From assembly GCA_035710445.1 (NCBI GenBank), contig DASTDH010000160.1:1-40176 (forward strand): a stretch of DNA of 40,176 bases, in the 5' to 3' direction. Of this stretch, positions 11,876 to 28,842 are shown one piece after another (the first letter of the stretch is position 1; every line of letters starts with the position of its first letter). A program made the translations under genes and the position numbers. The notes under the pieces were generated by a model. The model did no database searches. It worked only from the letters and a program-made list of their open reading frames with translations, and was not told the origin of the DNA. The stretch is from Chthoniobacterales bacterium (lineage in GTDB: Bacteria; Verrucomicrobiota; Verrucomicrobiia; Chthoniobacterales; JAFAMB01).

Positions 11876-11889
11876 TGAGAGGGGTTACA

Positions 11890-11937
11890 GGTTGCGTGTC
11901 GGGGCGTGATCGGTGATGCCCGTCGCAACCGTTTTTC
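11890..11937 (+). terminator. Rho-independent terminator candidate
   Basis: GGTTGCG (11890-11896) pairs perfectly with CGCAACC (11924-11930). An inner CGGG/CCCG extension adds to the stem. GTTTTTC follows at 11931-11937. Confidence 0.5.
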
Positions 11938-11970
11938 TAGCCGCATCTACTCAGCCAAAATAGCAAGCCG

Positions 11971-12204: not shown

Positions 12205-12339
12205 AATACTTAAGCCAGAATGTCTATTGGACTGTAAATCCTTCGATCGTATTCGGATATAACGGTCCAGAAGGATGTAAAGCAGACGAATGGCAGGCGA
12301 AAAAGTTCGGCACCGCCCGGGTGGTTGCTTCTCTTCACG

Positions 12340-12795: not shown

Positions 12796-12823
12796 CCGGT
12801 TCTCGCCCTCCGGCTCAAACGGA

Positions 12824-12851
12824 ATAGCCAATAGCCGATACTCGATAGCCA
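12824..12851 (-). repeat. Four tandem heptamers (plus strand ATAGCCA ATAGCCG ATACTCG ATAGCCA) in the thyA-folA spacer
   Basis: Read directly. The array ends 29 nt upstream of the proposed folA GTG start. On the coding strand it reads TGGCTAT CGAGTAT CGGCTAT TGGCTAT. Confidence 0.5.
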
Positions 12852-12943
12852 ACTGTTTCGCCGGATCACCGCCATAACAACGACCGCGTTGAGCCCTCTC
12901 GACCTCTTGGCTCCTAAATTCTAGATTCGGGTTTCTGATCCAC

Positions 12944-13738: not shown

Positions 13739-13801
13739 AGTCTGTAAAGTATAATGAAGGGGAAAAATTTCGTCCCGCGTCTTCATGACAACACGAAATC
13801 T

Positions 13802-14596
13802 ATGGAACAGCAAACTACTTTGATCGATACGCAGAATCTTCCTGATCACCGAGAAGTAGCCATCGACCGGGTGGGGGTAAAGAAGCTGCGTTTTCCGATC
13901 CTGGTCCGGGACAAAGCGCACACCTCTCAGCATACCGTGGCAACGGTGAGTTTGACCGTCGATCTGCCTCACCATTTCAAGGGCACTCACATGAGTCGCT
14001 TCATCGAAGTGCTCAATCATCATGGAACCGTTATTCACGTCGACAATATCAAGGTGATCCTGCGGGAACTGCAGTCGCGACTGGACGCCGAGGCGGCTCA
14101 TGTCGAATTCGAATTCCCCTACTTCATTGAGAAAAAAGCTCCAGTAACCGGCGCATCAGGATTACTGGAATATGCAGTGCGATTTAATGCCAGCGCGCAC
14201 CAGAGCGATTCCGAATTCGAAGTGACGGTCATGGTTCCAGTTACCACCCTCTGCCCGTGCTCTAAGGCGATCAGCAAGCACGGTGCACACAATCAACGGA
14301 GCCTGGTGACCTTTGCGGTGCGGTTCAGTAGCCCAATCTGGATCGAGGACCTGGTGCGCATGGTTGAGACATCGGCCAGTGCGGAACTTTTCAGCTTATT
14401 GAAGCGTCCTGACGAAAAGGCCGTCACCGAGCGCGCCTACGATCATCCGGTTTTTGTCGAGGATCTGGTTCGTAACATCGCGGTCAAAGCCAATGCTGAG
14501 CCACGGATTGTCTGGTATCGGGTCGAAGCGGAGAACTACGAGTCGATCCACAACCACAACGCCTACGCGATGATCGAGGGTCAGCCGCCGAGCTGA
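13802..14596 (+). CDS. folE2: GTP cyclohydrolase IB (FolE2/MptA family)
   Basis: [25 protein letters not shown]...[13 protein letters not shown]...[20 protein letters not shown] are the FolE2 (DUF198) signature motifs. Start set at ATG 13802 (MEQQTT...), 63 nt from the divergent thyA start. Confidence 0.85.
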
Positions 14597-14753
14597 TAAA
14601 CAGCGCTGTCGGGATGCTCTGAGCCGGCGAGTGGCAGAAGAAATGGTAGAGCTCTTGGGCGAACATCTCTGGCGTAAATACGACGCTATCGAGGCGAACT
14701 TCGATCGGGCATAGATCTTGTGAGGGAAGAAATAAGTCCTGAATCTCGGGAAA

Positions 14754-14848
14754 TGCATGCAAAATAGATCAGGCATATCCTTTGCGTAAGCTCTTGATTA
14801 TAAGAAACTAAGGATTCTCTAAAAATTGAGATTGCCTTTTTGCATGCA
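14754..14848. promoter_or_regulatory. Two copies of the 8-bp palindrome TGCATGCA forming an 11-bp inverted repeat (TGCATGCAAAA / TTTTGCATGCA), centres 87 bp apart
   Basis: Read directly at 14754-14764 and 14838-14848. They sit inside the AT-richer 433-bp non-coding region upstream of the 12-gene plus-strand block. Function is inferred only from position. Confidence 0.2.
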
Positions 14849-15029
14849 ATCAGTAGATACTCGCATACACGCTGTCTCCGCAAAAGGTCCTACTCCCTCA
14901 AGCAGGATATTTACGGATCTCGCCCAACCCCGATCCTTCCAAGAAATTAGCGACCTGAGGCCAGACCGATCTGACCCTTGGCCGATGTGATTGACACTAA
15001 CAAATGCATTCGTCTGACCTATTGATCAT

Positions 15030-16052
15030 ATGAATAAACGCGATTTTGGTGGATACAGTGCGGCGGCAGTCGCGCTGTCTTTACTTGCAACAATCTTCCT
15101 TACGTTGAACGCATCGGCCCAGGATAAAGCGGCCGTGCTGCTACCGGGTAGCATCAACGATCAAAGCTGGAACGCCCAGGGCTACGCCGGCGTTTTACGA
15201 CTGAAGGAAAAGGGTTGGGATGTGGCTTATTCCGAAAATGTTCAACCAGCGGACATGGCGCAAGCGCTGCAAGACTATGCCCGAAAAAATTATACTCTCA
15301 TTATCGGCCATACCGGCCGGTTTCTGTCCCCGATGCAGCTGGTAGGCCCTAAATTTCCAAAAGCGACTTTCATCGTGGGATCCGGCAATGCCGGCTCTGG
15401 AAAGAATGTTGCCTCGATTGATTTTGATAACACACAATTTGGCTATCTGATCGGCGTGTTAGCGGCTCGCATGAACAAGACCGGCAAGATCGGTTCAGTC
15501 AATGGCTTGGAAGGGTTACCCAACGTGGTCGCGCAAGTGGGCGCCTACCGAAAGGGAGCAAAAAGCGTCAATCCCAACATTGAAGTGAAGGTCATTTACG
15601 TCCAGGACATGGAAGACGCAGCTGGGGCGAAAGAAGCGGCGCTTTCCCTGAGTGCCTGGGGAGCGGACTATCTCAGTGGGAAGCTCAATGCGGGCCAACT
15701 TGGCATCATTCAAGCCGCCAAAGAAAAAGGGATTCACGCCAATGGTCGTTCAATTGAGGACACAGCAATTGCTCCCGACACTGTGCTGACAAATATCGTC
15801 GAGAAGTGGGGAGATATGTACGCAACGGCGGCCGACGAAGCCAAGGCGGGAACTTTAGGCGGGAAATTTGAACTGTATGGCTTGAACTCCAAAGGTTGCA
15901 CCGGCGCAGAGTTACTTTATACGAAAGACAAGGAGCTGAATCCGAACGTTCCTCAGGATATCGTGGATGAAATCCAGGCCGTTAAGAAAAAATTCGCCTC
16001 CGGTGAATTGAAAATCAGTGTCACGAAAGAAGATGCGCGCGGCGGCTTATGA
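15030..16052 (+). CDS. BMP-family (PnrA/Med-like) ABC transporter substrate-binding protein
   Basis: Signal peptide ending LNASAQD. The BMP-type body follows (AVLLPGSINDQSWN...LIIGHTG...GKIGSVNGLEGLPNVV...). A matching ATPase and two permeases come next. Confidence 0.8.
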   Translation: MNKRDFGGYSAAAVALSLLATIFLTLNASAQDKAAVLLPGSINDQSWNAQGYAGVLRLKEKGWDVAYSENVQPADMAQALQDYARKNYTLIIGHTGRFLSPMQLVGPKFPKATFIVGSGNAGSGKNVASIDFDNTQFGYLIGVLAARMNKTGKIGSVNGLEGLPNVVAQVGAYRKGAKSVNPNIEVKVIYVQDMEDAAGAKEAALSLSAWGADYLSGKLNAGQLGIIQAAKEKGIHANGRSIEDTAIAPDTVLTNIVEKWGDMYATAADEAKAGTLGGKFELYGLNSKGCTGAELLYTKDKELNPNVPQDIVDEIQAVKKKFASGELKISVTKEDARGGL

Positions 16053-17605
16053 GCCATGACGCGGCTCGACCTGAGAGTGTATCGTTGCCGATGCTCGAGA
16101 TGCGCGGCATCAATAAGCGATACGGCGCAATTCGAGCCAATGAGGGCATTGATCTGAGCGTCGCGGCAGGCCGGATCGTCGGCCTGCTTGGAGAGAATGG
16201 TTCAGGCAAAAGCACCTTGATGAAGGTGCTTTTCGGCATGGTCAAGCCGGATGCGGGGACTATCAGGTTCAAAGGTGAGATTCTTTCGGTTCACACGCCG
16301 CGCGAAGCTATCCGTGCAGGAATTGGCATGATCCATCAGCATTTCATGCTGGTGAACGCTATGACCGTAGTGGAGAACGTTATGCTCGGATGGTCGCGGG
16401 CTGGCACCTGGCTGCGAACGGAGCAAGTAGCCGAGCAGATCCGTCAAACGAGCAAGACTTATGGGCTCGAGCTTGATCCTGGTGCACTGGTTAGCGACCT
16501 ACCGTTTGGTCACCGGCAACGAGTTGAAATAGTGAAAGCTCTTCTCCGGGGCGCGGAGCTTCTGATCCTGGATGAACCGACTTCCAATCTCAGCCCTCCT
16601 GAGATCAGTGGTCTGCTAGCGGTCATGCGACGGATCGCGAAGCAAGGTCGCGCTATCATTTTCATTACGCATAAGCTGGGCGAAGTCTTTGACATCTGTG
16701 ACGAAGTGGTGGTCCTGCGCGATGGGAGAGTGGTGGGAAGATCGCCGATCGCAAACGCAACCCGGTCGGGCCTCGCCCACATGATGGTAGGACGGGAAGT
16801 GAGTTCTGGCCTGATTCGAATCGACCTCCCCGCCGGACCGGAGGTCCTGGTCGTGCGAGGCTTGGGGTTACGAGATTCCTCGGGCTTCCAACGGTTGCAC
16901 GACATCAATCTTACCCTGCGGGAAGGCGAAATCCTGGCGATCGCCGGCGTGGACGGCAATGGGCAAACCGATCTTGTCGATGTGCTCGCTGGTTTGAAGT
17001 TCCCGACGACTGGAACTATCACGCTGAACGGAAGAAACCTGACCCGGTCAACGGTTTCCGATCGGCTCACGGCGGGTCTCGCCTGTATACCGGTGGATCG
17101 CGGGACCACGGGTCTGGTCCCTGGAATGACGATCGAAGAAAACCTCGGTTTGCGTGATTTTACTCGTCCACCATTGAGGCACGGAGTTTGGTTAGATCAC
17201 GGATCGTTCCGGAAAGAAGCGAAAGCAAAAATGGCAGAGTTCGGTATCTTGGCGTCGAGCCCAGATACGCCTGTGCAAACACTTTCGGGCGGTAACCAAC
17301 AAAAAGTGGTGGTTGCGCGCGAGATTGGTCGCAAACCGAGGGTACTGATCGCGTGTCAAGCGACTTGGGGACTTGATCCCGGAGCGACGCGCTTCGTTAT
17401 CGATCAAGTTATAGCCTTGCGCAATCGGGGCGGAGCCGTGCTCTACATCTCATCTGAATTGGATGAAGTGCTGATGCTCGGCGATCGCATTGGAGTAATG
17501 TCTAATGGCCGGTTGCTCGGCGTTGTAGCGCGAACCGAGGTGGACATTACCCAAATCGGTCTAATCATGGCTGGCAGTAGCAGCGAAGTTTCGACGTTGT
17601 CATGA
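16049..17605 (+). CDS. ABC transporter ATP-binding protein, duplicated ATPase (sugar/nucleoside CUT2 type)
   Basis: Walker A GENGSGKST. Signature and Walker B region LILDEPTSNLS. Second-half signature LSGGNQQKVVVAREI. A 4-nt overlap with the SBP gene stop. Confidence 0.9.
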   Translation: MSHDAARPESVSLPMLEMRGINKRYGAIRANEGIDLSVAAGRIVGLLGENGSGKSTLMKVLFGMVKPDAGTIRFKGEILSVHTPREAIRAGIGMIHQHFMLVNAMTVVENVMLGWSRAGTWLRTEQVAEQIRQTSKTYGLELDPGALVSDLPFGHRQRVEIVKALLRGAELLILDEPTSNLSPPEISGLLAVMRRIAKQGRAIIFITHKLGEVFDICDEVVVLRDGRVVGRSPIANATRSGLAHMMVGREVSSGLIRIDLPAGPEVLVVRGLGLRDSSGFQRLHDINLTLREGEILAIAGVDGNGQTDLVDVLAGLKFPTTGTITLNGRNLTRSTVSDRLTAGLACIPVDRGTTGLVPGMTIEENLGLRDFTRPPLRHGVWLDHGSFRKEAKAKMAEFGILASSPDTPVQTLSGGNQQKVVVAREIGRKPRVLIACQATWGLDPGATRFVIDQVIALRNRGGAVLYISSELDEVLMLGDRIGVMSNGRLLGVVARTEVDITQIGLIMAGSSSEVSTLS

Positions 17606-17612
17606 GTAGGTT

Positions 17613-18737
17613 GTGAGCACTTCGCTACCCAAAGAGAAGGAGGTGGACCGGAGTGATCAGGTTGATCAACCTGGCACTCCAACCGGATCGCTACTACCCG
17701 CCGCGTTCGGCAGAAATGCCGATTTTTGGCGTCGTACCGCTCTCGCTGGCCTGGCGGTCTCACTGTCATTCGTGGTCGCTGCTATTCCAATTATTGTCGC
17801 GGGAAAGAATCCGATACTTGCCTATTGGGCGCTGGCCAGGGGCGCATGCGGGTCTGTCGATTCTATCGCGTTTGCGTTAAACAAAAGCACTCCTTATATA
17901 CTTGCGGGCGTCGGCGTGGCCCTTTGTTTTCGGGCCCGAGTGATCAACATTGGAGCCGAGGGGCAAATTGCGCTCGGCGGTATCGCCGCATCCTGGACCG
18001 CATTGAACGGTGCGGCTCTACCTGGTCAGCTCTTAATTCCTCTAGCGCTTCTCGTGGGCGGGTGCGCCGGGGCAGGATGGGCGGCAATCGCCGCCGTTAT
18101 GCGGCTTGCGCGCGGTGTTCATGAAGTGCTCGGAACGCTATTATTGAATTTCGTCGGTTTGCTCATGGTCAGCGAGGTATTGCATGGCCCGATGGGCGAA
18201 GTAGGAGCTGGTTTTCCGCAATCTCCTTTGTTTCCGGAACAGGCTTGGCTCCCACCGCTCGTTCCGGGCACGGACTTGCACATCGGTATCATTCTTGCCG
18301 TCGTTGCTGTTTTCATTTGTCATTGGGTGTTTTGGCATACCCCCTTCGGCTTTCGTCTGCGATTGCTCGGAAGCACCGATGCCGCTGCGACCTATGCTGG
18401 TGTGTCAATCGTTCGTGGTCTGTTTTCCGTCATGCTGATCGCGGGCGGTTTGGCCGGAGCCGCCGGTGCGGTCGAAGTGCTGGGCGTTCACTACCGGTTG
18501 ATTCAGGGTTTCTCCGTCGGCTTCGGCTTTAACGCGGTGGCAATTGCGCTGCTTGCCTCCTTGAATCCGATCGCAGTCTTACCCGCAGGTCTGTTCTTCG
18601 GGTTTCTGGAAACCGGTGCGCTGGCGATGCAGCGGGAGATTGGAGTTCCCTCTTCGCTCGTGTTTGTGATTCAAGGATTGACCATGGTTTTCGTCCTTTG
18701 CGCGTTGGGTATCAGCCTGAGACGACAACGAATTTGA
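17613..18737 (+). CDS. ABC transporter permease (BMP/CUT2 type)
   Basis: Polytopic hydrophobic protein of about 10 helices, 7 nt after the ATPase gene. The typical INIGAEGQI motif of this permease family is present. Confidence 0.85.
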   Translation: MSTSLPKEKEVDRSDQVDQPGTPTGSLLPAAFGRNADFWRRTALAGLAVSLSFVVAAIPIIVAGKNPILAYWALARGACGSVDSIAFALNKSTPYILAGVGVALCFRARVINIGAEGQIALGGIAASWTALNGAALPGQLLIPLALLVGGCAGAGWAAIAAVMRLARGVHEVLGTLLLNFVGLLMVSEVLHGPMGEVGAGFPQSPLFPEQAWLPPLVPGTDLHIGIILAVVAVFICHWVFWHTPFGFRLRLLGSTDAAATYAGVSIVRGLFSVMLIAGGLAGAAGAVEVLGVHYRLIQGFSVGFGFNAVAIALLASLNPIAVLPAGLFFGFLETGALAMQREIGVPSSLVFVIQGLTMVFVLCALGISLRRQRI

Positions 18738-18741
18738 AAGT

Positions 18742-19665
18742 GTGAACTACCCTGTTATCATCGAACTTCTGACCGCCTCAGTCCGCATCGCGACACCGCT
18801 TCTATTCGTGGCGCTTGGCGGTGTGATCTCGGAGTCCGGCGGAACGTTTGCGGTCGGAGTGGAGGGGATGATGCTGGGAGGAGCTTTCGGCGGGGCGGTG
18901 ACGGTCTTAGTGACCAAAAACGTCTTGCTTGGTCTTATGGCCAGCTCGATTTCAGGAGTCGTGCTTGCTGCGATCGTTGCGGTGGCAACGGTCCGCTTCA
19001 GAACGGATCACATGGTTACCGGGCTGGCTGTCAATATTTTTGCTTTGGGCCTAACTAGCTTCCTGCTGAGGGGACTCTTCGGCGGGAAGACGCCGGTGAT
19101 GGTATTGCCTACACTCGGCGCGCTGCAAATTCCCGGGCTGTGCGATTTGCCTTTGGTTGGTCCTGTTCTGTTTGACGAACCGGCGATGACCTATCTCGCT
19201 TTTCTGTTGGTTATTCCAGTACATTTGTTTCTTCGGAGAACATGTGCTGGCTTGACGCTCCGCGCGGCAGGCGAGAATCCTGCCGCTGCCTTCTCGGTCG
19301 GGGCCAACCCGGAACAGATCCGGATGGTCGCAGTGATCGTATGTGGCGCATTTGCGGGACTGGGCGGTGCGGTGCTTTCTCTACAAGAGTTAGGAACGTT
19401 TACCGACGGAATGACAAACGGTCGTGGTTTCCTTGCTCTCGCGGCGATTATCGTTGGCCGCTGGATGCCGTTTCGAGTGATGGGTGGCTGCCTGTTAATT
19501 GGCGCTGCTTCGGCGCTGGCGCTGAACATCCAGGGCTGGGGATTGCCGGTAAGTTCTTACGTAATCCAAATGACCCCCTATTTAATCGCTTTGGCAGTTC
19601 TTTGCGGGATCGGGCGCAAGGCCCGCATGCCGGAGGCGATCGGTAAAGCGTTCATCCGCAACTGA
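18742..19665 (+). CDS. ABC transporter permease (BMP/CUT2 type), second subunit
   Basis: GTG start 4 nt after the previous stop. Polytopic, with the GVEGMMLGGAF motif paralogous to the preceding permease. Confidence 0.85.
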   Translation: MNYPVIIELLTASVRIATPLLFVALGGVISESGGTFAVGVEGMMLGGAFGGAVTVLVTKNVLLGLMASSISGVVLAAIVAVATVRFRTDHMVTGLAVNIFALGLTSFLLRGLFGGKTPVMVLPTLGALQIPGLCDLPLVGPVLFDEPAMTYLAFLLVIPVHLFLRRTCAGLTLRAAGENPAAAFSVGANPEQIRMVAVIVCGAFAGLGGAVLSLQELGTFTDGMTNGRGFLALAAIIVGRWMPFRVMGGCLLIGAASALALNIQGWGLPVSSYVIQMTPYLIALAVLCGIGRKARMPEAIGKAFIRN

Positions 19666-19695
19666 ACGAACGAAGAGGAAATCAACAGCATTACT

Positions 19696-20787
19696 ATGAA
19701 AATTGGCGTCTATAAAGTGGCGATGGCTTCGCCTAGTGATGTATCCGAGTTAACCCAGTTGATCGATTCCCATGAGATCGATCCGGCTGAAATTGTCGCT
19801 CTGATCGGTAAAACCGAGGGTAACGGTGGTGCGAACGATTTCACACGTGGGTTCGCGACATTGTCGTACCAACTGATGCTTGCGAGCCGGCTCGGGCTTC
19901 CGCCCAAGGAAGTCGGGGAGCGTATCGCCTTTGTTTGGTCCGGAGGAACGGAGGGGGTTCTCTCTCCGCATGCCACGGTGTTTACACGCTCAGCAAAATC
20001 TGGCGAGGCAAATGGCTCCAGGCTGGCTTTAGGTATTGAAGCGACCCGCAACATTTTGCCGGAGGAAGTTGGCACGATGATTCAGGTACGAGAAGTGGCT
20101 GATGCCGTTCGCCGCTGCCTCAAGCAAGCCGGGATCAATGATTCAAAAGACGTCCACTACGTGCAAGTTAAGGGTCCGCTTCTGACCCCGGCCAGCATCG
20201 CCGACGCCGATGCGCGACAAAAGAAACTAGTCACGCGGGATCCTAACGGTTCTAAGCCTTATGCCCGAGGTGCGACAGCGCTGGGGGTGGCGCTAGGTCT
20301 AGGTGAAGTAAAAGAAGAAGCTCTTTCCGATGAAGTCATTGCGCGCCAGCTCGATATTTTTTCGGCGGTTGCGTCGACCTCGGCCGGCGGCGAACTAAAG
20401 AATTGCGAGGTATTGCTTTTTGGTAACTCGCCAACGGCGACCAGCGCATATCGGATCGGCCACGCAGTGCTTCGGGATGCGATTGACGCCGACGGGATTC
20501 GCGCGGCGCTGTCGGATGCAGGTCTTTCCGGATCGATTTCGCCCGTTGAATCAAAAAGGATAGCAGCCGTGTTCGCCAAAGCGGATGCCAGTCCAAATGG
20601 CCTGGTTCGAGGGCGGCGGACTACGATGTTGTCTGACGCGGATATTAACTATGAGCGCCATGCGCGGGCGGCGTTAGGCGCCGTGATTGCCTCAATTACC
20701 AACGACCCGGCAATTTTTGTTTCGGGTGGAACCGAGCATCAATGTGCTCCGGGAGCGGCACCGATTGCGGCCATTGTTCACGTGTGA
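19696..20787 (+). CDS. Ring-opening amidohydrolase, AtzD/TrzD cyanuric acid hydrolase / barbiturase family, paralogue 1 (363 aa)
   Basis: IVALIGKTEGNGGANDFTRGFATL is present. The threefold pseudo-repeat Ser motifs are FVWSGGTEG, STSAGGELK and FVSGGTEHQ. The partner lysines lie in GKTEG, VQVKGP and FAKAD. The C-terminal HQCAPGAAP deviates from the usual HQGPxGGG. Confidence 0.85.
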   Translation: MKIGVYKVAMASPSDVSELTQLIDSHEIDPAEIVALIGKTEGNGGANDFTRGFATLSYQLMLASRLGLPPKEVGERIAFVWSGGTEGVLSPHATVFTRSAKSGEANGSRLALGIEATRNILPEEVGTMIQVREVADAVRRCLKQAGINDSKDVHYVQVKGPLLTPASIADADARQKKLVTRDPNGSKPYARGATALGVALGLGEVKEEALSDEVIARQLDIFSAVASTSAGGELKNCEVLLFGNSPTATSAYRIGHAVLRDAIDADGIRAALSDAGLSGSISPVESKRIAAVFAKADASPNGLVRGRRTTMLSDADINYERHARAALGAVIASITNDPAIFVSGGTEHQCAPGAAPIAAIVHV

Positions 20788-20808
20788 AACCGCGTGACGG
20801 GAGCGTGT

Positions 20809-22212
20809 ATGGCAAAAGAACTCTGGCAAAGATCCGGCGTCGAGCTTGGCGCTGCTTACGCCAGCGGTGAGTGCACGCCTGTTGACGTCCTGGAGGCCGT
20901 TCTCCAGCGGATCGAAAGGGTTAACCCGGTAATCAACGCCTTTGTCACGCTGGATTCCGCTGGAGCACGGCAGTCGGCCGAAGCGAGCGCAAAGCGTTGG
21001 CAAACAGGAACCGAATCCGGGCCTTTGGACGGTGCCCCGATTAGCGTCAAAGACAATATCACCGTGGGCGGTCTCCGATCTACATGGGGCAGCAAGTTAT
21101 ACTCCGATTTTGTTCCTAAGTCTGACGAGCTCCCGATCAGTCGGCTTCGGTCCAAGGGCGCCATCATCCTTGGCAAGACCAATTGCCCTGAGTTCACTCT
21201 CCAAGGGTATACCGATAATCTGCTCTTTGGGGTCACCCGGAATCCCTGGAATCCGGAATTGACGCCAGGCGGATCCAGCGGGGGAGCGGTCGCGGCGGTC
21301 GCGGCGGGGCTTGGGCCAATCGCCATCGCGACTGATGGTGGAGGTTCTATTCGGCGCCCCGCTTCGCACACAGGTCTGGTCGGCCTGAAACCGTCTCGAG
21401 GCCGGGTTCCACGCTGCGATGGTTTCCCTGCCATCCTGCTCGACTTCGAGTCCGTCGGCCCTGTCGCTCGAACAATCCAAGATATCATTCTCGTGATGCA
21501 AGCAATCAGCGGATATGATTCGCGCGATCCGTTGGCTTTGGCGTTCAAGGATACGCCGTTCGCAACCAGTTCCGTTCCTCGAAACCGGATTCGGTTTGTT
21601 CGGAAATTCGGCGAATCTCCGGTAGACCCAGAAATAGCAAAGAATGTTGAAGCTGCTGCGGCGGTATTCGCCGAGCTCGGGCATATCGTCGAAGAAGGAG
21701 ACGCACCTTTCGATCTCGAACCGCTGAATGAAGCATGGGCGGTGATCAGCCAAACCGGCTTGGCCTGGTTGCTACGGTCGTTTCCAAAATGGCATGGAAA
21801 AATTACGCCCGCACTCGAGGAAATGGCGAGAAACGGTGAAAAGCGGACGGGTTCAGCGTATGTTGCAGCTTTAGATGCCGTGTGGCGCTTACAGAAGAGC
21901 CTATCGATCTTCTTCAGCGACCATGACGTTATCCTGACACCGTCCGCCGCTGCCCTACCTTGGCCAGCTTCGGAACCGTTTCCAACCCAGATCGCCGGAG
22001 AGCGTGTGGGACCGCGCGGTCACGCGATTTTCACCGGTTTTGCCAACATGGCGGGGTGCCCCGGAATTAGCGTTCCCGCGGCGCCGTCTGCCGAAGGCTT
22101 GCCGATCGGCTTTCAGATGGTCGCGGCACCAGGGCAAGACGGGATGTTGTGTGCTTTGGCCGGCCAATATGAAAGTATTCAACCCTGGGTCGATCGTTTC
22201 CCGCGGCTGTGA
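20809..22212 (+). CDS. Amidase-signature (AS) family amidohydrolase
   Basis: Ser-cisSer-Lys triad context: PISVKDNI, TPGGSSGGAVAAVAAG, ATDGGGSIRRPAS. Start set at ATG 20809 (MAKELWQ). Confidence 0.85.
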   Translation: MAKELWQRSGVELGAAYASGECTPVDVLEAVLQRIERVNPVINAFVTLDSAGARQSAEASAKRWQTGTESGPLDGAPISVKDNITVGGLRSTWGSKLYSDFVPKSDELPISRLRSKGAIILGKTNCPEFTLQGYTDNLLFGVTRNPWNPELTPGGSSGGAVAAVAAGLGPIAIATDGGGSIRRPASHTGLVGLKPSRGRVPRCDGFPAILLDFESVGPVARTIQDIILVMQAISGYDSRDPLALAFKDTPFATSSVPRNRIRFVRKFGESPVDPEIAKNVEAAAAVFAELGHIVEEGDAPFDLEPLNEAWAVISQTGLAWLLRSFPKWHGKITPALEEMARNGEKRTGSAYVAALDAVWRLQKSLSIFFSDHDVILTPSAAALPWPASEPFPTQIAGERVGPRGHAIFTGFANMAGCPGISVPAAPSAEGLPIGFQMVAAPGQDGMLCALAGQYESIQPWVDRFPRL

Positions 22213-22270
22213 AAACGTTCTTCGCGCTACCGCAACTGGAAAAATTGATCCCCCAATAGTTGGCTTCCAA

Positions 22271-23377
22271 ATGCGTGCGGACGTTCACCGATTCAGCCTG
22301 AAAGATCCGAGTGATGTCTCAGGTCTTAATGAGGCCATCGAGAAAGGCGATATCGATCCGGAAAAGATTGTCGCCGTTATCGGCAAGACGCATGGAAACG
22401 GCCTGGTTAACGATTATACGCGCGGTTACCTGACGCTCTGCCTGTCGCAGCTAATAGGTGCTCGGATGGGTTCGCCGGCCGAGAGCGTGAGGAAGCGTGT
22501 TCCATTTGTTTTCTCCGGTGGCGTTGAAGGCGTGTTGTCCCCGCATTATGTCGTTTTCACGGTCGATCCGGACGCGGCGGCGAGCGGTGAGGAGAAGTCG
22601 CTCGCCATCGGTGTCGGGTTCACACCGGAGTTCTCCCCTTCGGACGTCGGTAGGCAACGCCAGATCGACGCGACGGCAGAGGCTGTGAGCGAAGCGATGA
22701 CCAGCGCAGGCATAGAGAGTCCTGCTGATGTCCATTTCGTTCAAGTCAAAGGTCCTGCTTTCACCACTGACGACCTAATCGCGGCAGGCAAAGCCAAACT
22801 GACCTGCGCGACCGAGAACCCGGGTAAGCTGATGGGCTTCGGGCGAGCTGCTTCGGCATTGGGCGTCGCAAAGGCCTTAGGCGAAATCACAGCCAACGAG
22901 GCACGGGAGGCCGCAGTGCTTCACAACTTCGACGCCTATTCCTCTGTCGCGAGCGTTTCTGCGGGAGTCGAGGTGCGCGCAAACGAAATCATTGTCGCGG
23001 GTCTCAGCCGGATGTGGTCTGGGCCGTTGACGATCGCTCATCGCGCTATCAAAGACGCGCTCGACATCGCCAGTGTAACCGACCTGGCCCGTGGTCTGGG
23101 CCTCTCGCCCGCACCGCAAGTTCCAGCCGCGCAGGCGCGCCGCATCCGGGCCGCCTTCGTCAAGTGCGAGGCACAACGCGATGGAACGATCCGCGGCCGC
23201 CCTCACACCATGCTCAACGACGGAGATATTGACCAGCAACGGCACATTCGGGGCGCGGTCGGTGCGATTGTGGCAGCCGTGCTTAATGATACGGCGCTTT
23301 TTGTGTCGGGTGGCGCAGAACACCAAGGTCCTGACGGTGGCGGATTGATTGCCCTCATCGTCGACAAAACGATTTGA
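22271..23377 (+). CDS. Ring-opening amidohydrolase, AtzD/barbiturase family, paralogue 2 (368 aa)
   Basis: IVAVIGKTHGNGLVNDYTRGYLTL is present. The Ser motifs are FVFSGGVEG, SVSAGVEVR and FVSGGAEHQGPDGGG. The partner lysines lie in GKTHG, VQVKGP and FVKCEA. Start set at ATG 22271 (MRADVHRF...); the ORF-track start at 22004 overlaps the amidase. Confidence 0.85.
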   Translation: MRADVHRFSLKDPSDVSGLNEAIEKGDIDPEKIVAVIGKTHGNGLVNDYTRGYLTLCLSQLIGARMGSPAESVRKRVPFVFSGGVEGVLSPHYVVFTVDPDAAASGEEKSLAIGVGFTPEFSPSDVGRQRQIDATAEAVSEAMTSAGIESPADVHFVQVKGPAFTTDDLIAAGKAKLTCATENPGKLMGFGRAASALGVAKALGEITANEAREAAVLHNFDAYSSVASVSAGVEVRANEIIVAGLSRMWSGPLTIAHRAIKDALDIASVTDLARGLGLSPAPQVPAAQARRIRAAFVKCEAQRDGTIRGRPHTMLNDGDIDQQRHIRGAVGAIVAAVLNDTALFVSGGAEHQGPDGGGLIALIVDKTI

Positions 23378-23477
23378 TCCAACCACGGAGTTTAGGGCGG
23401 CACCAGGCGCCGTCCCACATTGAACAAAGCATTTGATGTATGATATTGCTGCCTTCGATGGCGGCAGGAGCAACACG

Positions 23478-24743
23478 ATGACCGATGCAAAAAAGGTCGA
23501 CCCGTCGCGACCCGACCCCGACAATAAAGCCGATCCGTCGCCAAACCGGATCCTCCCGCTCAGACACCTTCGGGTTCTCGATATCAGCCAAGTAATGGCA
23601 GGCCCATTTTGCGGCATGCTTCTGGGCGACATGGGGGCCGACGTTATTAAAATCGAGCCGCCGGGATCGGGAGACCAGACTCGCCGCGCGATGGGCTTTA
23701 AACTCAAAGGCTCCGATAGCCTCGGCTTCATTAACATGAACCGGAACAAGCGGAGCATGGTTCTCAATCTTAAAACCGAGGCTGGACGCGAGGTGTTTTA
23801 TCAATTGGTGGGAACGGCGGACGTGCTGCTCGAGAACTATCGTCCGGGCGTAACCGCGCGCCTCGGTATCGATTATGAAACGTTGAAGGCCATCAATCCG
23901 CGCCTCATTTACGCAAGCATTTCGGGCTTCGGTCAAACCGGTCCGTGGTCGCAGCGGCCAGGCTTTGACCTGATAGCCCAAGCGATGGGTGGGATCATGA
24001 GCATAACGGGTGATCCCGATGGTCCACCGGCAAAGTCCGGAGTTCCGGTGGCAGATATTGGCTGTGCTCTACTCGCGCTCTACGCCATCTTGAGCGCGTA
24101 TATCGGACGGCTCGAAACGGGTGAAGGCCAATATATCGACGCTTCCCTATTTGAGGCGGCAATCGCATTCGCAGTCTGGGACATATCTGAATTCTGGGGA
24201 ACCGGCAAAGTGCCGCAAAAACTGGGCACCGCCAACCGGATGAGCGCGCCCTATCAGGCAGTCAGGGCAAGTGACGGTTACTTCGTAATGGGCGCGAACA
24301 ACAACAAGCTTTGGCGCAGCCTCTGCGAGCTAATTAATCGGCCTGATCTTCTGGGGGACTCACGGTTCGCCAGCATCGCCGATCGCCTGGCCAACCGGAT
24401 CGCGCTGATCGAGGAGCTCGAAAAAACTTTAATCACGCGGCCGGCCGAACATTGGGTCGAGCAAATGCTCGCTGCCGGGATACCGGCTGGCCCGATCTAC
24501 GACTATGCTCAGGCGCTTGACAACGATCATGCGCGCCATCGCAATATCATCATGGAGATCGATCACCCGGTCGAGGGAAAGGTTCGCTCGATCGGATTTC
24601 CGGTAAAGCTGAGTGGTACGCCACAGCAGCTTCGGATGCCGCCGCCTCTTCTTGGCGCGCACACCGAGGAGATTTTGACCGAACTCGGTGTGGGACCCGA
24701 CGCAATGAAAAAACTTCGGACCAGCGGAGCTTTCGCGCCGTGA
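23478..24743 (+). CDS. Family III CoA-transferase (CaiB/BaiF/Frc type)
   Basis: LRVLDISQVMAGPFCGMLLGDMGADVIKIEPPGSGDQTR and GFDLIAQAMGGIMSITG (catalytic Asp context) are typical of the family. Start is ATG 23478, or 23436. Confidence 0.85.
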   Translation: MTDAKKVDPSRPDPDNKADPSPNRILPLRHLRVLDISQVMAGPFCGMLLGDMGADVIKIEPPGSGDQTRRAMGFKLKGSDSLGFINMNRNKRSMVLNLKTEAGREVFYQLVGTADVLLENYRPGVTARLGIDYETLKAINPRLIYASISGFGQTGPWSQRPGFDLIAQAMGGIMSITGDPDGPPAKSGVPVADIGCALLALYAILSAYIGRLETGEGQYIDASLFEAAIAFAVWDISEFWGTGKVPQKLGTANRMSAPYQAVRASDGYFVMGANNNKLWRSLCELINRPDLLGDSRFASIADRLANRIALIEELEKTLITRPAEHWVEQMLAAGIPAGPIYDYAQALDNDHARHRNIIMEIDHPVEGKVRSIGFPVKLSGTPQQLRMPPPLLGAHTEEILTELGVGPDAMKKLRTSGAFAP

Positions 24744-24955
24744 GTGTTGGCGAGATGCAGTTCGCGACGTGCGACGGTATCGCTTCGGCTGGATTCCAGC
24801 GACCGGGTAGATCGCGCACGACATGGTCAACGCCTGACTTTTTGAATGTGTTAGTTCAACAACTGATGATACGATCCTGAGCCATTGCGGACACTGACTG
24901 ACCAAACCAGTCTCGGTTCAGTCGGATCGCAGACACAGGGATCGAAGCGACCACC

Positions 24956-26296
24956 ATGTGCAAGAATGCATGCTTCAATCGATGGGCGGGAGCGGCGGGA
25001 ATCGCCGCTGTCATACTATTTCTTGGCTCGATTTCGTCCGGCTCGGCTGCCGATGAGAAAGGGATCGGCTTCAGCCTGGACAAGGCATCTTCCGGGACCG
25101 AGGTGCCGCAGGCAGAGGTAAGTCTCGGCATGCGTCCCTATGCCAACGATTTGATCTTCGTTGCCGGAATAAAGCAGGGGTTTTACAAGGATGTCGGTCT
25201 AACCGTTACACCCGCTCCGTATGGACGGAAGGTGCTGCCAGATCAGGCGATCCCGCTTCTGGTCAACAAGCAGATCGACTTCATGGCGCTCTATCCACCC
25301 GACATCATTGCGACCATGGATTCGGTCCAAAACGTTCGATTTATCGCGTTAACCGACCTTTTCCAAGGATTTGCTGTCCTCGCTCGCCCAGGCTCGAACG
25401 TGAAAACCGTCGAACAGTTCATGTCTGATGGGTTGACTTTTGAAGAAGCGATGAAGCGAACCATGGCTCAGCTCAAGGGTAAGAGCTTCGTTACCGCGCC
25501 GGTCGTCGACAACCGCATCTTTCTTGAGACGGTCTTTTCGCTTGGCGGAATGAACATGGACAAAGATACGAAGTTGGTTGTCACACCTGACTCGAATGCG
25601 CTCCAGCTCGAGACTGGCGGCAAGGTCGATTTTGCCTCGCCGACCGGCGCCCCGTTTACAGCACAGCTCCGTTTTGCGGGTTGGATCCCGCTGGTCACCC
25701 CGCTCGACGTACTAACCAATATGCCAGCCGGTCCGGGTTCACCAACGGCAGCTTTGGTCGGCACGCCAGGCGTCGCTTGTGACGCGCAATGGGCGCGGGA
25801 GCACGCCGAAACCGTACTCCGCTTCACATCGGTGATGTTTCGCATCATCGAACAGGAGCAAAAAGACCCCGACCTGATGCTCAAATCGATGCTCGATTAC
25901 GTGAATTCTTTTGCCGGCACGAGTCTCGATATTGCCGGGCTCAAACTGACGATCGACAGCTTAAGCCCTTTGTCGAACTTTGAGTTTCAAAAGAACTACT
26001 TCGACAATCAGAATTCGGCGTTGTACTACCGGACAGCTTTCGACGCGGCGGTAAAATTTAACGTCGACAAGGGCGTTCTACCCAACGGCAAATACGATGC
26101 CGACGACGTGATCTGGGCCTCCGGTGTGTATCACGACATGGTTGCGTTGAAGCAGGCGGCGGACGACCTGCTCAAGCGAGCCGGAGGTTCGAATCTTTCA
26201 AGCCAAAACCAAGCTCTGCTCGAGAAAGCAAAGCAGTTCTACGGTTGGTACGACTATCTGGACGCTTATCGGCTGCTGCGCGTGGCGGTGCAATGA
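24956..26296 (+). CDS. ABC transporter substrate-binding protein, NMT1/THI5-like (NitT/TauT family) with a C-terminal extension of about 100 aa
   Basis: Sec signal (AAVILFLGSISSGSAADE). Body has GFYKDVGLTVT...VNKQIDFMALYPP...FAVLARPGSNVKTVEQF, typical of NitT/TauT binding proteins. TauC/TauB-like partners follow. At 446 aa it is about 100 aa longer than usual. Confidence 0.6.
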   Translation: MCKNACFNRWAGAAGIAAVILFLGSISSGSAADEKGIGFSLDKASSGTEVPQAEVSLGMRPYANDLIFVAGIKQGFYKDVGLTVTPAPYGRKVLPDQAIPLLVNKQIDFMALYPPDIIATMDSVQNVRFIALTDLFQGFAVLARPGSNVKTVEQFMSDGLTFEEAMKRTMAQLKGKSFVTAPVVDNRIFLETVFSLGGMNMDKDTKLVVTPDSNALQLETGGKVDFASPTGAPFTAQLRFAGWIPLVTPLDVLTNMPAGPGSPTAALVGTPGVACDAQWAREHAETVLRFTSVMFRIIEQEQKDPDLMLKSMLDYVNSFAGTSLDIAGLKLTIDSLSPLSNFEFQKNYFDNQNSALYYRTAFDAAVKFNVDKGVLPNGKYDADDVIWASGVYHDMVALKQAADDLLKRAGGSNLSSQNQALLEKAKQFYGWYDYLDAYRLLRVAVQ

Positions 26297-27162
26297 CTTT
26301 TCGTGCAACCCAGCATTCGTCGGATCCACTTCTGCCGAGCTCACGAATGGACCCGACCGGCCGCCTCATCAAACGCACCACTACACGAAAGAATCTCATC
26401 GGCATCCTCTATACCCTCGCTGGCCTGGGCCTCTTCATTGTGGCTTGGTGGTACGCCGCGAGCCAGCTTCCCAGGAGCCGGCTGGTTACGCCGCTTGAAG
26501 CCGGAACCGATATTTGGATCAATTTTCTGTATTCACGTCGTCTTGCTGTCTTTGGCTTGGGCAAGGTAGGCTACGGCTCGCTATTGCTTTATACGGTCGG
26601 CAACGTGCTCACCGGGCTCGCAGCCGGCGGGGCGATCGGTATATTTATTGGAACCGCTAGCACGCGATTGCGTCTCCTCCGGCTATTCGTAGACCCCGTT
26701 GTCCTGGTTCTAGGAACCGTACCCGTCCTAGTGGCCGCACCGCTTTTCCTCCTTTGGTTTGGAGTCGTCCCATTCACGCAGGTCTTGCTCGTCGCCTTTT
26801 ACAGTGCGGTCATGATGGTTCTGTTTAGCCAGCGAGCGGCGGAAAACATAGATCCGGTTTATGAGCGCTGGGCCACGACTTTCGGCGCAGGAATCGCTGT
26901 TCGAATCCGTCATATCCTCATTCCTGGCACAGTCCCCGAGATCATTGGCGGCTTGCGTATTACGCTGGCGAGCGCTTGGGGCCTTGAGGTCTTCGCGGAA
27001 ATTCTGGGCGCTCCGAGCGGTATGGGCCAGGCAATAAAGGCATTTACCAACCTCAATAATGTATCCGGCCTTCTTGCCTGCGTCGTCATCGTGGCGGTAA
27101 CCGCTATAGTCACTGACATTCTCCTAGTCGCACTTGCGCGGCGAGTCACTGCGTGGGCGTAG
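26293..27162 (+). CDS. ABC transporter permease (NitT/TauT family)
   Basis: The ATGA overlaps the SBP stop (26293-26296). It has 6 TM helices and the family loop ASAWGLEVFAEILGAPSGMGQAI. Confidence 0.8.
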   Translation: MTFRATQHSSDPLLPSSRMDPTGRLIKRTTTRKNLIGILYTLAGLGLFIVAWWYAASQLPRSRLVTPLEAGTDIWINFLYSRRLAVFGLGKVGYGSLLLYTVGNVLTGLAAGGAIGIFIGTASTRLRLLRLFVDPVVLVLGTVPVLVAAPLFLLWFGVVPFTQVLLVAFYSAVMMVLFSQRAAENIDPVYERWATTFGAGIAVRIRHILIPGTVPEIIGGLRITLASAWGLEVFAEILGAPSGMGQAIKAFTNLNNVSGLLACVVIVAVTAIVTDILLVALARRVTAWA

Positions 27163-27164
27163 TC

Positions 27165-27929
27165 ATGGACCCCCAGAAACCCGCTCTTGCCGTTCAAGAC
27201 ATTGGGGTACGTTTTGTGCGCGCCGACGGCACCCCGGTTGTGGCCCTCGAAGGCGTGTCGCTTCAAGTTTTGCCGGGCGAATTTGTCTGCATACTAGGGC
27301 GCTCGGGCCACGGCAAAACGACGCTGCTCAATGTCGTCGCGGGATTGCTTAAGGCGCAGCGTGGAGAAGTGCGAGTGATGGATCAGCTGGTGACTGGTCC
27401 CGGCCCTGACCGGGGCGTCATTTTCCAGCAAGATGCCGTGTATCCTTGGATGCGAGTAGAGGACAACGTCGCTTTTGGCCTCAGGGTTCGCCATATCTCT
27501 AACCAGGAACGGTTGCGGATCGCGCGCGAACAGTTGGCACTGGTTGGCCTTTCCTCGGTGGCTCGCGCCTGGCCGCGCGAGTTATCGGGCGGCATGCGTG
27601 CCCGGGTTGCCATTGCCGCGGTCTTTGCCAATGATCCTCCTATCCTGCTGGCCGACGAGCCGTTCGGCGCGCTCGACTATGTGACCCGGCGTCAGCTTCA
27701 AGCGGTGATGCAAAATCTTTGGCGACGGACGGGGAAGACAGTCCTCTTCGTCACTCACGATGTGGACGAGGCTATGATGCTCGGGACGCGCGTCATTGTC
27801 GTAAAGAACGGTGGCATAGCAGAGGATCGACCGATCGATTTGCCAATGCCGCGGAGCGACGACGATGTCGCCACTGAAGCGGGGCTCGCGATTAAGCATC
27901 TACTGTTGCATCACATCGGGTTGGAATAA
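27165..27929 (+). CDS. ABC transporter ATP-binding protein (NitT/TauT family)
   Basis: Walker A GRSGHGKTT. Signature LSGGMRARVAIA. Walker B ILLADEPFGALD. H-loop VTHD. ATG lies 2 nt after the permease stop. Confidence 0.9.
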   Translation: MDPQKPALAVQDIGVRFVRADGTPVVALEGVSLQVLPGEFVCILGRSGHGKTTLLNVVAGLLKAQRGEVRVMDQLVTGPGPDRGVIFQQDAVYPWMRVEDNVAFGLRVRHISNQERLRIAREQLALVGLSSVARAWPRELSGGMRARVAIAAVFANDPPILLADEPFGALDYVTRRQLQAVMQNLWRRTGKTVLFVTHDVDEAMMLGTRVIVVKNGGIAEDRPIDLPMPRSDDDVATEAGLAIKHLLLHHIGLE

Positions 27930-27933
27930 GTAG

Positions 27934-28842
27934 ATGAAGATGAATATTCGAGTATCGGGCCCGCTCGGAGGTGTTACTGTTCTACTGGTCCTGGTTATCG
28001 CCTGGGAATTGCTTTCCTTCATCGTAACCGCCAAAGGCAGCTATGACGAGCCCTTGATCCCTGGCTGGGGCTATCTGGTCGGCAATTCGCTATTGCGCAT
28101 GTCAGATTATTGGGGCGGCGGATTTGGAGTGCCGGCTCCATCGGAAGGGGGCCCGCCCACTTACGCAGCCGCGTTTCTTGCGCTAGGCAGCGCATCCCTT
28201 GTCACTTTCCAGCGAGTACTTTTCGGCATCATGTTCGGAACGCTCGGCGGTATCAGCCTCGGGCTGCTTGTGGCGACCTTCGATGCGGCCCGCCGCCTGA
28301 TCGCGCCGACCGTACACATCGTCCGTATGACGCCCTTTTTGGCAATGATTCCGCTCTTCAATTTATGGTTTGGAGCAAACACTTTCGGGATCGTCTTGTT
28401 TGTCGCCTATGGTGTCGCAGTCATTATGTTCATCGGCACCGTGAACGCGGTTCGCAACGTGCCAAAAGTCTATTTCGAACGTGCGGCAACCGTGGGCGCG
28501 AGCCGAGCTACAGTGTTTCGCCACGTGGTCCTGCCGGCGATATTCCCGGAAATCCGCGCATCCTTCTTGCTCAGCTTTGGTCTTTCGTGGAGCCTCGTCG
28601 TCGGTGGCGAGCTGCTCGGAGCCCAGAGTGGTCTCGGCGTCATCGTGACTTACGCGTTGCAATTCGCCTATACCGGGCGGGTGATGATAATAGCGTTCCT
28701 ATTCGTCATCTATGCTGGACTCAGCTTCGCGCTCTTCGACGCGATCTCTCGCCGGATCATCGATTGGCATCCGCAGGTGGTGCAGAGACTGATTTCGGCA
28801 CAAGTAAGCCGACGCGGTGTAGTCGGCACCATCCGCCAGTGA
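27934..28842 (+). CDS. ABC transporter permease (NitT/TauT family), second subunit
   Basis: Polytopic. Paralogous loop SWSLVVGGELLGAQSGLGVIV. ATG lies 4 nt after the ATPase stop. Confidence 0.8.
   Translation: MKMNIRVSGPLGGVTVLLVLVIAWELLSFIVTAKGSYDEPLIPGWGYLVGNSLLRMSDYWGGGFGVPAPSEGGPPTYAAAFLALGSASLVTFQRVLFGIMFGTLGGISLGLLVATFDAARRLIAPTVHIVRMTPFLAMIPLFNLWFGANTFGIVLFVAYGVAVIMFIGTVNAVRNVPKVYFERAATVGASRATVFRHVVLPAIFPEIRASFLLSFGLSWSLVVGGELLGAQSGLGVIVTYALQFAYTGRVMIIAFLFVIYAGLSFALFDAISRRIIDWHPQVVQRLISAQVSRRGVVGTIRQ

Follow-up and report, generated by a model that had tools for sequence, protein, structure and literature searches.

Positions 15030-28842 of a 40,176-nt stretch of DNA from a Chthoniobacterales bacterium (contig DASTDH010000160.1; the whole stretch is hereafter called the window) carry twelve adjacent plus-strand genes, identified from the list of open reading frames (ORFs) and Pfam scans of the window. 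With a probability of about one half, these genes form a composite cluster for the catabolism of small cyclic ureides, i.e. six-membered triones of the cyanurate or barbiturate type. Sequence comparison divides the cluster into two conserved modules that have been fused head to tail. Module 1 consists of a BMP-type ATP-binding cassette (ABC) importer, a ring-opening amidohydrolase of the AtzD/barbiturase family (enzyme A) and an amidase-signature (AS) amidase, while module 2 consists of a second member of the same family (enzyme B), a family III CoA-transferase and an NMT1-type ABC importer. Judged by its sequence, neither A nor B is a canonical cyanuric acid hydrolase (CAH) or barbiturase. 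The evidence consists of the gene families, the intact catalytic residues of A and B, their non-canonical specificity signatures and the conserved neighbourhoods of the genes.

Family membership and specificity signatures of enzymes A and B

Both enzymes belong to the AtzD/barbiturase family, which has the Toblerone fold: they match PF09663 (scores in Table 1) and score 451 (A) and 391 bits (B) on TIGR02714, whose cut-off is 153. The K-R-S-K-R-S-K-R-S pattern is intact in each, comprising all nine catalytic lysines, arginines and serines (three Ser-Lys dyads and three arginines). To place them within the family, five solved sequences (without their termini, and transcribed from HMMER alignments) were aligned with 91 family members. 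The four solved CAHs are 52-65% identical among themselves and 42-49% identical to barbiturase. Enzyme A shares 45-54% identity with the solved CAHs, the highest value being that to the Moorella enzyme, 43% with barbiturase and 40% with B. Enzyme B is 44-45% identical to the four solved CAHs, and hence as distant from them as barbiturase is, and 40% identical to barbiturase itself.

The published CAH motif, SGGxExQGPxGGGP (PMC9118981), is matched by each of the 52 canonical sequences, the four solved CAHs among them, and is absent from all six members of the A clade, from all 38 members of the B clade and its sister group, and from barbiturase. In the C-terminal loop of A, SGGTEHQCAPGAAP, four residues depart from the motif, and the form typical of the A clade is SGGTEHQC.PG..P. 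The corresponding region of B, SGGAEHQGPDGGGL, has leucine in place of the last proline (loop ...GGGL), a position occupied by Leu, Met, Ile or Thr throughout B and its sister group. B also carries GKTHGNG.

Position 321 was proposed as a specificity position by Peat et al. 2013, who described an AtzD-like signature of R195, T321, R325, G345 and G346 and a Bar-like signature of N195, H321, K325, V345 and S/A346 (PMC3758960). Read at positions 195/321/325/345/346, canonical enzymes have R-T-R-G-G, A has R-E-R-G-G, B has R-Q-R-G-G and barbiturase has N-H-K-V-S, so that A and B each carry four of the five CAH residues and differ at 321. This position is Glu in all six members of the A clade, which we call E-type, Gln in all 38 members of B and its sister group, called Q-type, and Thr or Ser in the 51 canonical sequences (51/51). 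Loss of the motif and the presence of Gln or Glu at 321 coincide without exception across all sources. The CAH-type arginines, equivalent to AtzD R194/195 and R324/325, are present in A, in B and throughout their clades.

The B clade has further changes at positions where the 51 canonical sequences do not vary and which lie beside the catalytic residues K40, S79, K156, R188, K285 and R314, namely E42H, M78F, T82V, C157G, L159A, L160F, S187G, G189A, A286C and A313I (A. caulinodans numbering). With barbiturase, A shares Gly46 and Trp78, the latter just before the first catalytic serine, and B shares only Ile324 and the cysteine following the third catalytic lysine.

The tree, a neighbour-joining (NJ) tree only, with barbiturase as outgroup, places the A clade (bootstrap 100) outside the group of the four solved CAHs by a split with a bootstrap of only 36. 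The B clade (bootstrap 86) and its sister group form a 38-member superclade with a bootstrap of 100 and no solved CAH inside. An earlier reading of the DNA from its letters and ORFs (the sequence-only reading) had considered the substrate of both paralogues open and had looked to their phylogenetic placement. The tree places B in a superclade of its own that is nested among CAH lineages, and A outside the solved CAHs by a fragile split. The same reading had held that the cluster does not match the canonical cyanuric acid route, which agrees with the departure of both A and B from the published CAH sequence criteria. By their sequences, the two enzymes thus appear to be family members with intact chemistry, and neither can be shown to belong to one of the two characterised activity classes.

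The closest solved relatives of A and B are nonetheless CAHs, and both enzymes exceed the cut-off of 360 bits of the NCBIfam equivalog model NF052395, 'cyanuric acid amidohydrolase' (A 455, B 449 bits). This match was dropped as evidence of CAH identity, since a Nocardioides barbiturase (89% identity to the crystallised enzyme) outscores both A and B on it, at 478 bits. The model gives the name of CAH to barbiturases and to both new clades, a systematic over-annotation. Both clades are widespread and common in soil metagenomes: A-like sequences at 75% identity or more fall into more than 120 clusters at 90% identity, and B-like sequences at 64% identity or more form at least 120 clusters among the matches listed, of 5,732 family hits.

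Two separately conserved modules

Conservation of the cluster was followed in 80 genome and 80 metagenome loci encoding relatives of B and in six further loci fetched through A, by tblastn against the window and by ORF clustering, with locus retrieval depending on peptide patterns. Module 1 recurs in all six loci sampled through A and stands alone, with neither B nor the CoA-transferase, in five of them. In five of the six, A directly follows the BMP importer (BMP-protein orthologues at 74-94% identity), and an orthologue of the amidase (49-82% identity) lies within the operon in every one. A class V aminotransferase accompanies the module in four of these loci and a GntR/FCD regulator in three or four; L169, L170 and L174 have the regulator intact, ahead of the BMP importer. 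Only one of the six has a second AtzD paralogue. The notion that A is always accompanied by a second paralogue was accordingly rejected, as it holds in loci found with B as the query only and reflects ascertainment bias.

As for module 2, of nine informative close relatives, defined as having B at 74% identity or more and at least 1.5 kb of sequence downstream of it, six have the CoA-transferase (82-93% identity) 26-126 nt downstream of B. A crotonase-family gene stands between the CoA-transferase and the importer in four of these six loci (L007, L089, L090 and L146); there is none in the window or in L096. Orthologues of the NMT1 protein follow the CoA-transferase at 83-94% identity in L007, L089, L090, L096 and L146 and are found at 70-71% in L012 and L013, and the importer 2 genes (24956-28842) are co-conserved with B and the CoA-transferase in relatives. 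Beyond the close relatives, CoA-transferase orthologues of 66-74% identity adjoin B-clade genes (63-67% identical to B) in Devosia, Bauldia, an uncultured alphaproteobacterial metagenome-assembled genome (MAG) and similar metagenome contigs; in the Devosia and Bauldia genomes and the MAG, the CoA-transferase near B is 69-74% identical. Loci of this alphaproteobacterial type often contain the crotonase and the NMT1 importer (70-71% identity) as well. A collection of plasmids contained no member of the B clade, every match being below 60% identity.

The sequence-only reading had described one eight-gene operon and had named the CoA-transferase as a member. The membership is well founded, the gene being co-conserved with paralogue B across two phyla. 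The single unit has to be replaced by two separately conserved modules that are fused here and run four genes further. The CoA-transferase travels with B and is found in none of the six loci sampled through A.

Some B-clade genes have other company. In L003, L005, L012, L102 and L171 (Alphaproteobacteria and related contigs), they occur with a short-chain dehydrogenase and a protein of the NAD-dependent epimerase/dehydratase family, often with ECF-type transporter, PfkB, SIS and polysaccharide-deacetylase genes nearby, and L171 also has a ureidoglycolate lyase. These neighbours might mean that the substrate is glycosylated or that there is a connection with purine catabolism.

Neighbourhoods of Q-type, E-type and canonical genes

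Partners were counted within 10 kb of each AtzD-family gene, an amidase orthologue being one of 44% identity or more and the seeds for BiuH-like proteins coming from the characterised Rhizobium leguminosarum cluster; sampling was driven by B-like and A-like queries, and the fractions are descriptive rather than population estimates. Around 84 Q-type (B-like) genes, there was an amidase in 33 cases, a flavin monooxygenase in 63, a CoA-transferase in 14, a crotonase in 11, a CoxL-type hydroxylase in 14 and a BiuH-like protein in none. The 14 E-type (A-like) genes had an amidase in 14 cases, a flavin monooxygenase in six, a CoA-transferase in four, a crotonase in three, and neither a CoxL-type hydroxylase nor a BiuH-like protein in any. 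Around 48 canonical genes, one amidase and eight BiuH-like proteins were found and no flavin monooxygenase, CoA-transferase, crotonase or CoxL-type hydroxylase; the sole canonical gene with an amidase orthologue sits beside an E-type gene. Pooled, the Q and E types have an amidase in 47/98, a flavin monooxygenase in 69/98, a CoA-transferase in 18/98, a CoxL-type hydroxylase in 14/98 and a BiuH-like neighbour in 0/98.

The flavin monooxygenase is of group A, and its closest solved relatives are 6-hydroxynicotinate 3-monooxygenase and HpxO. In soil metagenome contigs and genomes (L152, L161, L163-L168, L028 and L067), the order CoxL, Q-type AtzD, HpxO/NicC-like flavin monooxygenase, VOC protein and AS amidase recurs, an arrangement that, from its gene content, looks like an uncharacterised N-heterocycle pathway. 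The molybdenum-hydroxylase large subunit beside two genes of the B sister group (in L028 and L067) is 44-45% identical to the Rhodococcus one.

These neighbourhoods bear on whether the two modules belong together. They might be chance neighbours, module 1 being an N-heterocycle operon and module 2 serving another pathway with no metabolite passed between them, or, in a variant, the CoA-transferase might merely have moved with B by horizontal transfer; we consider both versions improbable. They draw on the solitary module 1 in five of the six loci sampled through A, on the convergent orientation of the modules in L007 and L146 and their different arrangement in L001, on the gaps of 100 and 212 nt on either side of the CoA-transferase gene, and on the lack of a CoA-transferase at most Q-type loci. 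The modules nevertheless neighbour each other, less than 10 kb apart, in loci of four close relatives, in the three arrangements of the window, of L007/L146 and of L001, which speaks for selection on proximity, and the pairing of B and CoA-transferase has been kept across two phyla despite rearrangement. The amidase orthologue is, moreover, a regular partner of Q-type genes that have no A gene beside them (33/84), so that B probably needs the amidase of module 1 here.

Amidase, CoA-transferase, crotonase and binding proteins

The amidase scores below the cut-off of every NCBIfam model. It reaches 203 bits against a cut-off of 426 (TIGR02715) and 199 against 461 (PRK09201) on the models for AtzE, and the gaps of 21 and 58 nt beside it are too short for a small ORF and thus for an AtzG-type partner. 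As an allophanate hydrolase, it scores 184 bits against a cut-off of 487, and its 467 residues include no AH_C domain. The enzyme is proposed to be an N-acylurea (ureido-acid) hydrolase.

The CoA-transferase is a full-length family III member that stays below every substrate-specific NCBIfam cut-off; its nearest structures are SUGCT 9br6 (297 bits), followed by YfdE. The crotonase-family protein of relatives (e.g. L007 5138-5908) matches NCBIfam PRK06144 at 344 bits, and at its place, the window has a gap of 212 nt (24744-24955). Two glutamates are catalytic in enoyl-CoA hydratases. Compared with 3-hydroxypropionyl-CoA dehydratase, the crotonase of relatives lacks both, having GGGLAIA for GGGLELA and GVPIA for GLPEIN, and is on that account a candidate decarboxylase or hydrolase of a thioester.

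The best solved relative of the BMP binding protein is AtzT of the atrazine plasmid (6pi5, 109 bits), a resemblance that keeps a cyanurate-type substrate possible for module 1. Orthologues of the BMP protein at 53-70% identity adjoin several AtzD clades, including AtzD-like ones (L065 and L080). The NMT1-like protein of importer 2 (446 aa) had no detectable relative among solved structures, and its Pfam match is weak (Table 1).

Proposed pathway and competing explanations

From these families and neighbourhoods, we infer the order of the steps and the identities of the rings, and also that the amidase acts on an acylurea and the CoA-transferase on an acid of malonate type. In module 1, the BMP-type, AtzT-like importer would take up a ring compound, A would hydrolyse one ring amide bond to give a linear N-acylurea, and the AS amidase would cleave the acylurea to urea or ammonia and an acid. 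In module 2, the NitT/TauT-type importer would take up a related ring, which B would open in the same manner, again yielding an N-acylurea, with the AS amidase as a presumed partner common to the E-type and Q-type enzymes. The SUGCT/YfdE-like CoA-transferase would then turn the acid of the carbon skeleton, of malonate type, into its CoA thioester. In close relatives, the crotonase-family protein may subsequently decarboxylate or cleave this thioester; its gene is missing from the window.

As judged from sequence, the ring opened by B is most likely barbiturate-like or a 5-substituted barbiturate, and that of A may be either cyanurate-like or barbiturate-like. The carbon-containing ring is placed at B because the CoA-transferase would have no substrate in cyanurate mineralisation, whose products are all carbamates, urea derivatives or CO2. 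The sequence of ring opening, acylurea amidase and CoA activation has a real precedent in the gene content of the Rhodococcus barbiturase locus.

Several observations weigh against this pathway. CAHs differ from barbiturase in having R195, R325 and a Gly-Gly pair, all of which A and B have kept (four of five CAH positions), and they match none of the five barbiturase signature positions. Relative to the Moorella and TrzD enzymes, A is placed with a bootstrap of only 36, and B is nested among CAH lineages in the NJ tree. A CoA-transferase lies beside only about 17% of Q-type genes and, as noted, in 0/6 loci sampled through A. BMP-family importers occur in two genuine cyanurate/triazine loci, those of AtzT and of R. 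leguminosarum 3841. The window has no crotonase, monooxygenase, molybdenum hydroxylase or urea-handling gene of any kind. Finally, identity to the Rhodococcus and Nocardioides counterparts is only 32-36% for the amidase and the CoA-transferase; the proteins are analogues, and the analogy draws no support from orthology.

Part of this list would fit a plain cyanuric acid nitrogen-scavenging cluster, in which A and B would be CAH isozymes, the BMP importer would take up cyanurate, the AS amidase would replace BiuH or AtzE and act on biuret or 1-carboxybiuret, and the CoA-transferase and importer 2 would belong elsewhere. We regard this as unlikely, with plain cyanurate use possible for module 1 in particular. 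In its favour, A and B keep the nine catalytic residues as well as R195, R325, G345 and G346; they exceed the NCBIfam CAH equivalog cut-off, but this model passes barbiturase too and carries no weight on specificity. The nearest solved relatives are CAHs for A and B and AtzT for the BMP protein, and the characterised R. leguminosarum cluster likewise combines GntR, a BMP ABC importer and atzD. Orthologues of the BMP protein (53-70% identity) also stand beside several AtzD clades, the AtzD-like L065 and L080 among them, but the BMP protein of the window is only 25% identical to the Rhizobium one. Against CAH isozymes stand the failure of the CAH motif in both clades without exception and the change at position 321. 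Allophanate hydrolase, BiuH, AtzG and AtzH were not found in the window, and BiuH-like neighbours number 0/98 for the Q and E types versus 8/48 for canonical genes. The usual partners of the two types, i.e. flavin monooxygenase, molybdenum hydroxylase, class V aminotransferase, CoA-transferase and crotonase, have no role in cyanurate mineralisation.

The cyclic ureide pathway, as first sketched in the sequence-only reading, is therefore partly upheld: its reasoning is plausible and has more evidence behind it than plain cyanurate use has, and its single eight-gene unit has given way to two modules. A bolder version, which is doubtful, would make A (Glu321) and B (Gln321) two new substrate classes that open 5-substituted barbiturates such as dialurate, alloxan or uramil. 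The polar residue at 321 would, under this equally doubtful extension, read the substituent at ring position 5. If this were true, rings such as dialurate (5-hydroxybarbiturate) and uramil (5-aminobarbiturate) would come from further oxidation of pyrimidines or purines, and an 'extended oxidative pyrimidine' pathway would end in urea and tartronate, mesoxalate or aminomalonate, together with their CoA esters. Its members would be the CoxL-type hydroxylase, the HpxO/NicC-like monooxygenase, a short-chain dehydrogenase, the class V aminotransferase, the acylurea amidase, the dicarboxylate CoA-transferase and the non-hydratase crotonase.

Layout and flanks of the cluster

The genes of the cluster and the regulator remnant upstream are listed in Table 1. 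The first eight, ending at 24743, have the strand and families given in the sequence-only reading, and its intergenic gaps (-4, 7, 4, 30, 21, 58 and about 100 nt) were reproduced as -4, 7, 4, 30, 21, 58 and 100 nt, computed with its own start codons. Its end of the array at 24743 was set too early: after a gap of 212 nt, four further plus-strand genes continue to 28842, separated by -52, -10 and 4 nt. The importer 2 permease that overlaps the preceding gene by 52 nt probably starts later than its ORF does.

Table 1. Genes of the proposed cyclic ureide cluster and the upstream regulator remnant (positions in the window).
Feature	Position	Strand	Evidence
GntR/FCD regulator remnant, last ~39 codons	14592..14708	+	tblastn with the L169 GntR: 49% identity, residues 208-246/248, E=2.5e-8
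BMP/PnrA-family substrate-binding protein, ABC importer 1	15030..16052	+	Pfam Bmp, 161 bits
Two-domain ABC ATPase, importer 1	16049..17605	+	Pfam ABC_tran, two stretches; 4-nt overlap with the preceding stop
Permease 1, importer 1	17613..18737	+	Pfam BPD_transp_2, 122 bits
Permease 2, importer 1	18742..19665	+	Pfam BPD_transp_2, 112 bits
AtzD/barbiturase-family ring-opening amidohydrolase A, 'E-type'	19696..20787	+	Pfam PF09663 (Amido_AtzD_TrzD), 494 bits
Amidase-signature amidase, 467 aa	20809..22212	+	Pfam Amidase, 340 bits
AtzD/barbiturase-family ring-opening amidohydrolase B, 'Q-type'	22271..23377	+	Pfam PF09663, 427 bits
Family III CoA-transferase, dicarboxylate type	23478..24743	+	Pfam CoA_transf_3 (PF02515), 446 bits, profile positions 1-366/366
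NMT1-like substrate-binding protein, importer 2 (NitT/TauT type)	24956..26296	+	Pfam NMT1_2, 39 bits
Permease, importer 2	26245..27162	+	Pfam BPD_transp_1, 77 bits; same family in L007, L012 and L013
ABC ATPase, importer 2	27153..27929	+	Pfam ABC_tran, 97 bits
Second permease, importer 2	27934..28842	+	Pfam BPD_transp_1, 70 bits

Co-transcription is suggested by the gene spacing alone: a scan for promoter and terminator consensus sequences gave counts at the level of shuffled sequence, i.e. of chance, with no terminator in the gaps. The closest relatives of the cluster genes come from Chthoniobacterales and from 'Verrucomicrobia' MAGs; an exact look-up of protein A matched no recorded entry. 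The ORF list, Pfam scans and tblastn with seed proteins revealed no AtzG, AtzH, allophanate hydrolase, biuret hydrolase or molybdenum hydroxylase in the window, in line with the earlier statement that the lower atz pathway and a uracil/thymine dehydrogenase are absent. Crotonase, flavin monooxygenase, VOC protein, class V aminotransferase, molybdenum hydroxylase and short-chain dehydrogenase likewise had no tblastn match in the window.

Upstream of the cluster lie folE2, thyA and folA, and downstream of it an ORF without a family match, followed by a block of minus-strand ORFs. The regulator remnant stands directly 3' of the folE2 stop, and its intact homologue heads module 1 in relatives; by this comparison, the cluster seems to have lost its dedicated regulator here, and likewise the class V aminotransferase of relatives. 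The thyA ORF (12944-14101, minus strand) has an N-terminal extension of about 122 codons that overlaps the start region of folE2 (13754-14596, plus strand), and its real start is probably near 13735, since the Pfam match starts at residue 123.

Novelty and implications

Only two activities are known from the small AtzD/barbiturase family, and nearly all of its members are entered in databases as 'cyanuric acid amidohydrolase'. The A and B clades, both abundant in soil, depart from the published criteria for CAHs, lie in conserved operons out of keeping with cyanurate mineralisation and are uniformly mislabelled as CAHs. In the searchable literature (barbiturase/ureidomalonase, uracil dehydrogenase, AtzD-like and ureidomalonate), neither clade nor the CoA-transferase step was found described. 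If their substrates were identified, soil nitrogen and pyrimidine/purine turnover would gain a new reaction and probably also a new route of ureide breakdown, and a systematic annotation error that affects metagenome surveys of 'cyanuric acid/atrazine degradation potential' would be corrected. Position 321 provides a testable specificity proposal for the threefold-symmetric active site.

Comparison with known systems

The oxidative pyrimidine locus of Rhodococcus offers the nearest parallel in gene content. In the Rhodococcus qingshengii locus L087, the barbiturase is 99% identical over 89% of the crystallised enzyme, and the genes (4340-7074 and 10001-19867) comprise UPRT, barbiturase, AS amidase, class III aminotransferase and CoxM/S/L, with a CoA_transf_3 protein and a fused AccD/AccA-type carboxyltransferase upstream; in Nocardioides (L088), the barbiturase adjoins a family III CoA-transferase. 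This gene content suggests that the known Rhodococcus pathway may be continued from malonate to malonyl-CoA and on to acetyl-CoA, a continuation for which no description was found in the literature. The Rhodococcus locus resembles the cluster in having an AtzD/barbiturase-family hydrolase next to an AS amidase and a CoA_transf_3 protein in the same locus, and the chemistry proposed here, from ring to acylurea, to urea and diacid, and to acyl-CoA, would follow the same course. It differs in that A and B have none of the N-H-K-V-S residues, that its amidase passes PRK07486 at 715 bits while that of the window, from a different subfamily, scores 297, and that the window lacks a molybdenum hydroxylase, a carboxyltransferase and UPRT and instead has two paralogues and two ABC importers. 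The amidase and CoA-transferase of the window were rejected as orthologues of the Rhodococcus and Nocardioides proteins, their identities being 32% and 33-36%, respectively. The lower oxidative pyrimidine route with CoA activation, to which the sequence-only reading had likened the cluster, has its precedent in the gene composition of Rhodococcus and finds no counterpart in barbiturase positions (0/5) or in orthologous partners.

The pRL10 cluster of R. leguminosarum (johnstonii) 3841 (L175) is laid out as GntR, then BMP ABC importer, formamidase, cysteine hydrolase, atzD, ATPase and cysteine hydrolase. Like the cluster described here, it has GntR, a BMP ABC importer, an AtzD-family hydrolase and a downstream amidohydrolase, in the same order as module 1 of relatives, the window keeping a remnant of GntR. 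In contrast, its AtzD-family enzyme is a canonical CAH with the motif and Thr321, an isochorismatase-family cysteine hydrolase (BiuH) stands in the place of an AS amidase as its partner, and the cluster has no CoA-transferase. The BMP protein of the window was rejected as an orthologue of the one in this cyanurate cluster at 25% identity.

The system of Pseudomonas sp. ADP (atzDGEHF and atzRSTUVW) shares with the cluster an AtzD-family hydrolase, an AS amidase (AtzE) and a BMP-family binding protein, AtzT (PMC6834077). The window differs in that its amidase scores 203 bits on the AtzE model (cut-off 426), in the absence of AtzG, AtzH and AtzF, and in A and B, which are 50 and 45% identical to AtzD and both lack the CAH motif.

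Within the family itself, the closest parallel is with Groups IV and V of Peat et al. 2013, whose signature is unlike those of AtzD and Bar and of which one Group V protein, when tested, acted on neither substrate (PMC3758960); the sequence-only reading had likewise stated that the family has members with neither activity. A and B resemble these groups in having a specificity signature that differs from both AtzD and Bar, but R-E-R-G-G and R-Q-R-G-G match none of the six groups, and Arg195 is kept, unlike in Group V. The existence of family members with neither activity was thus known already, and the two clades represented by A and B are new here.

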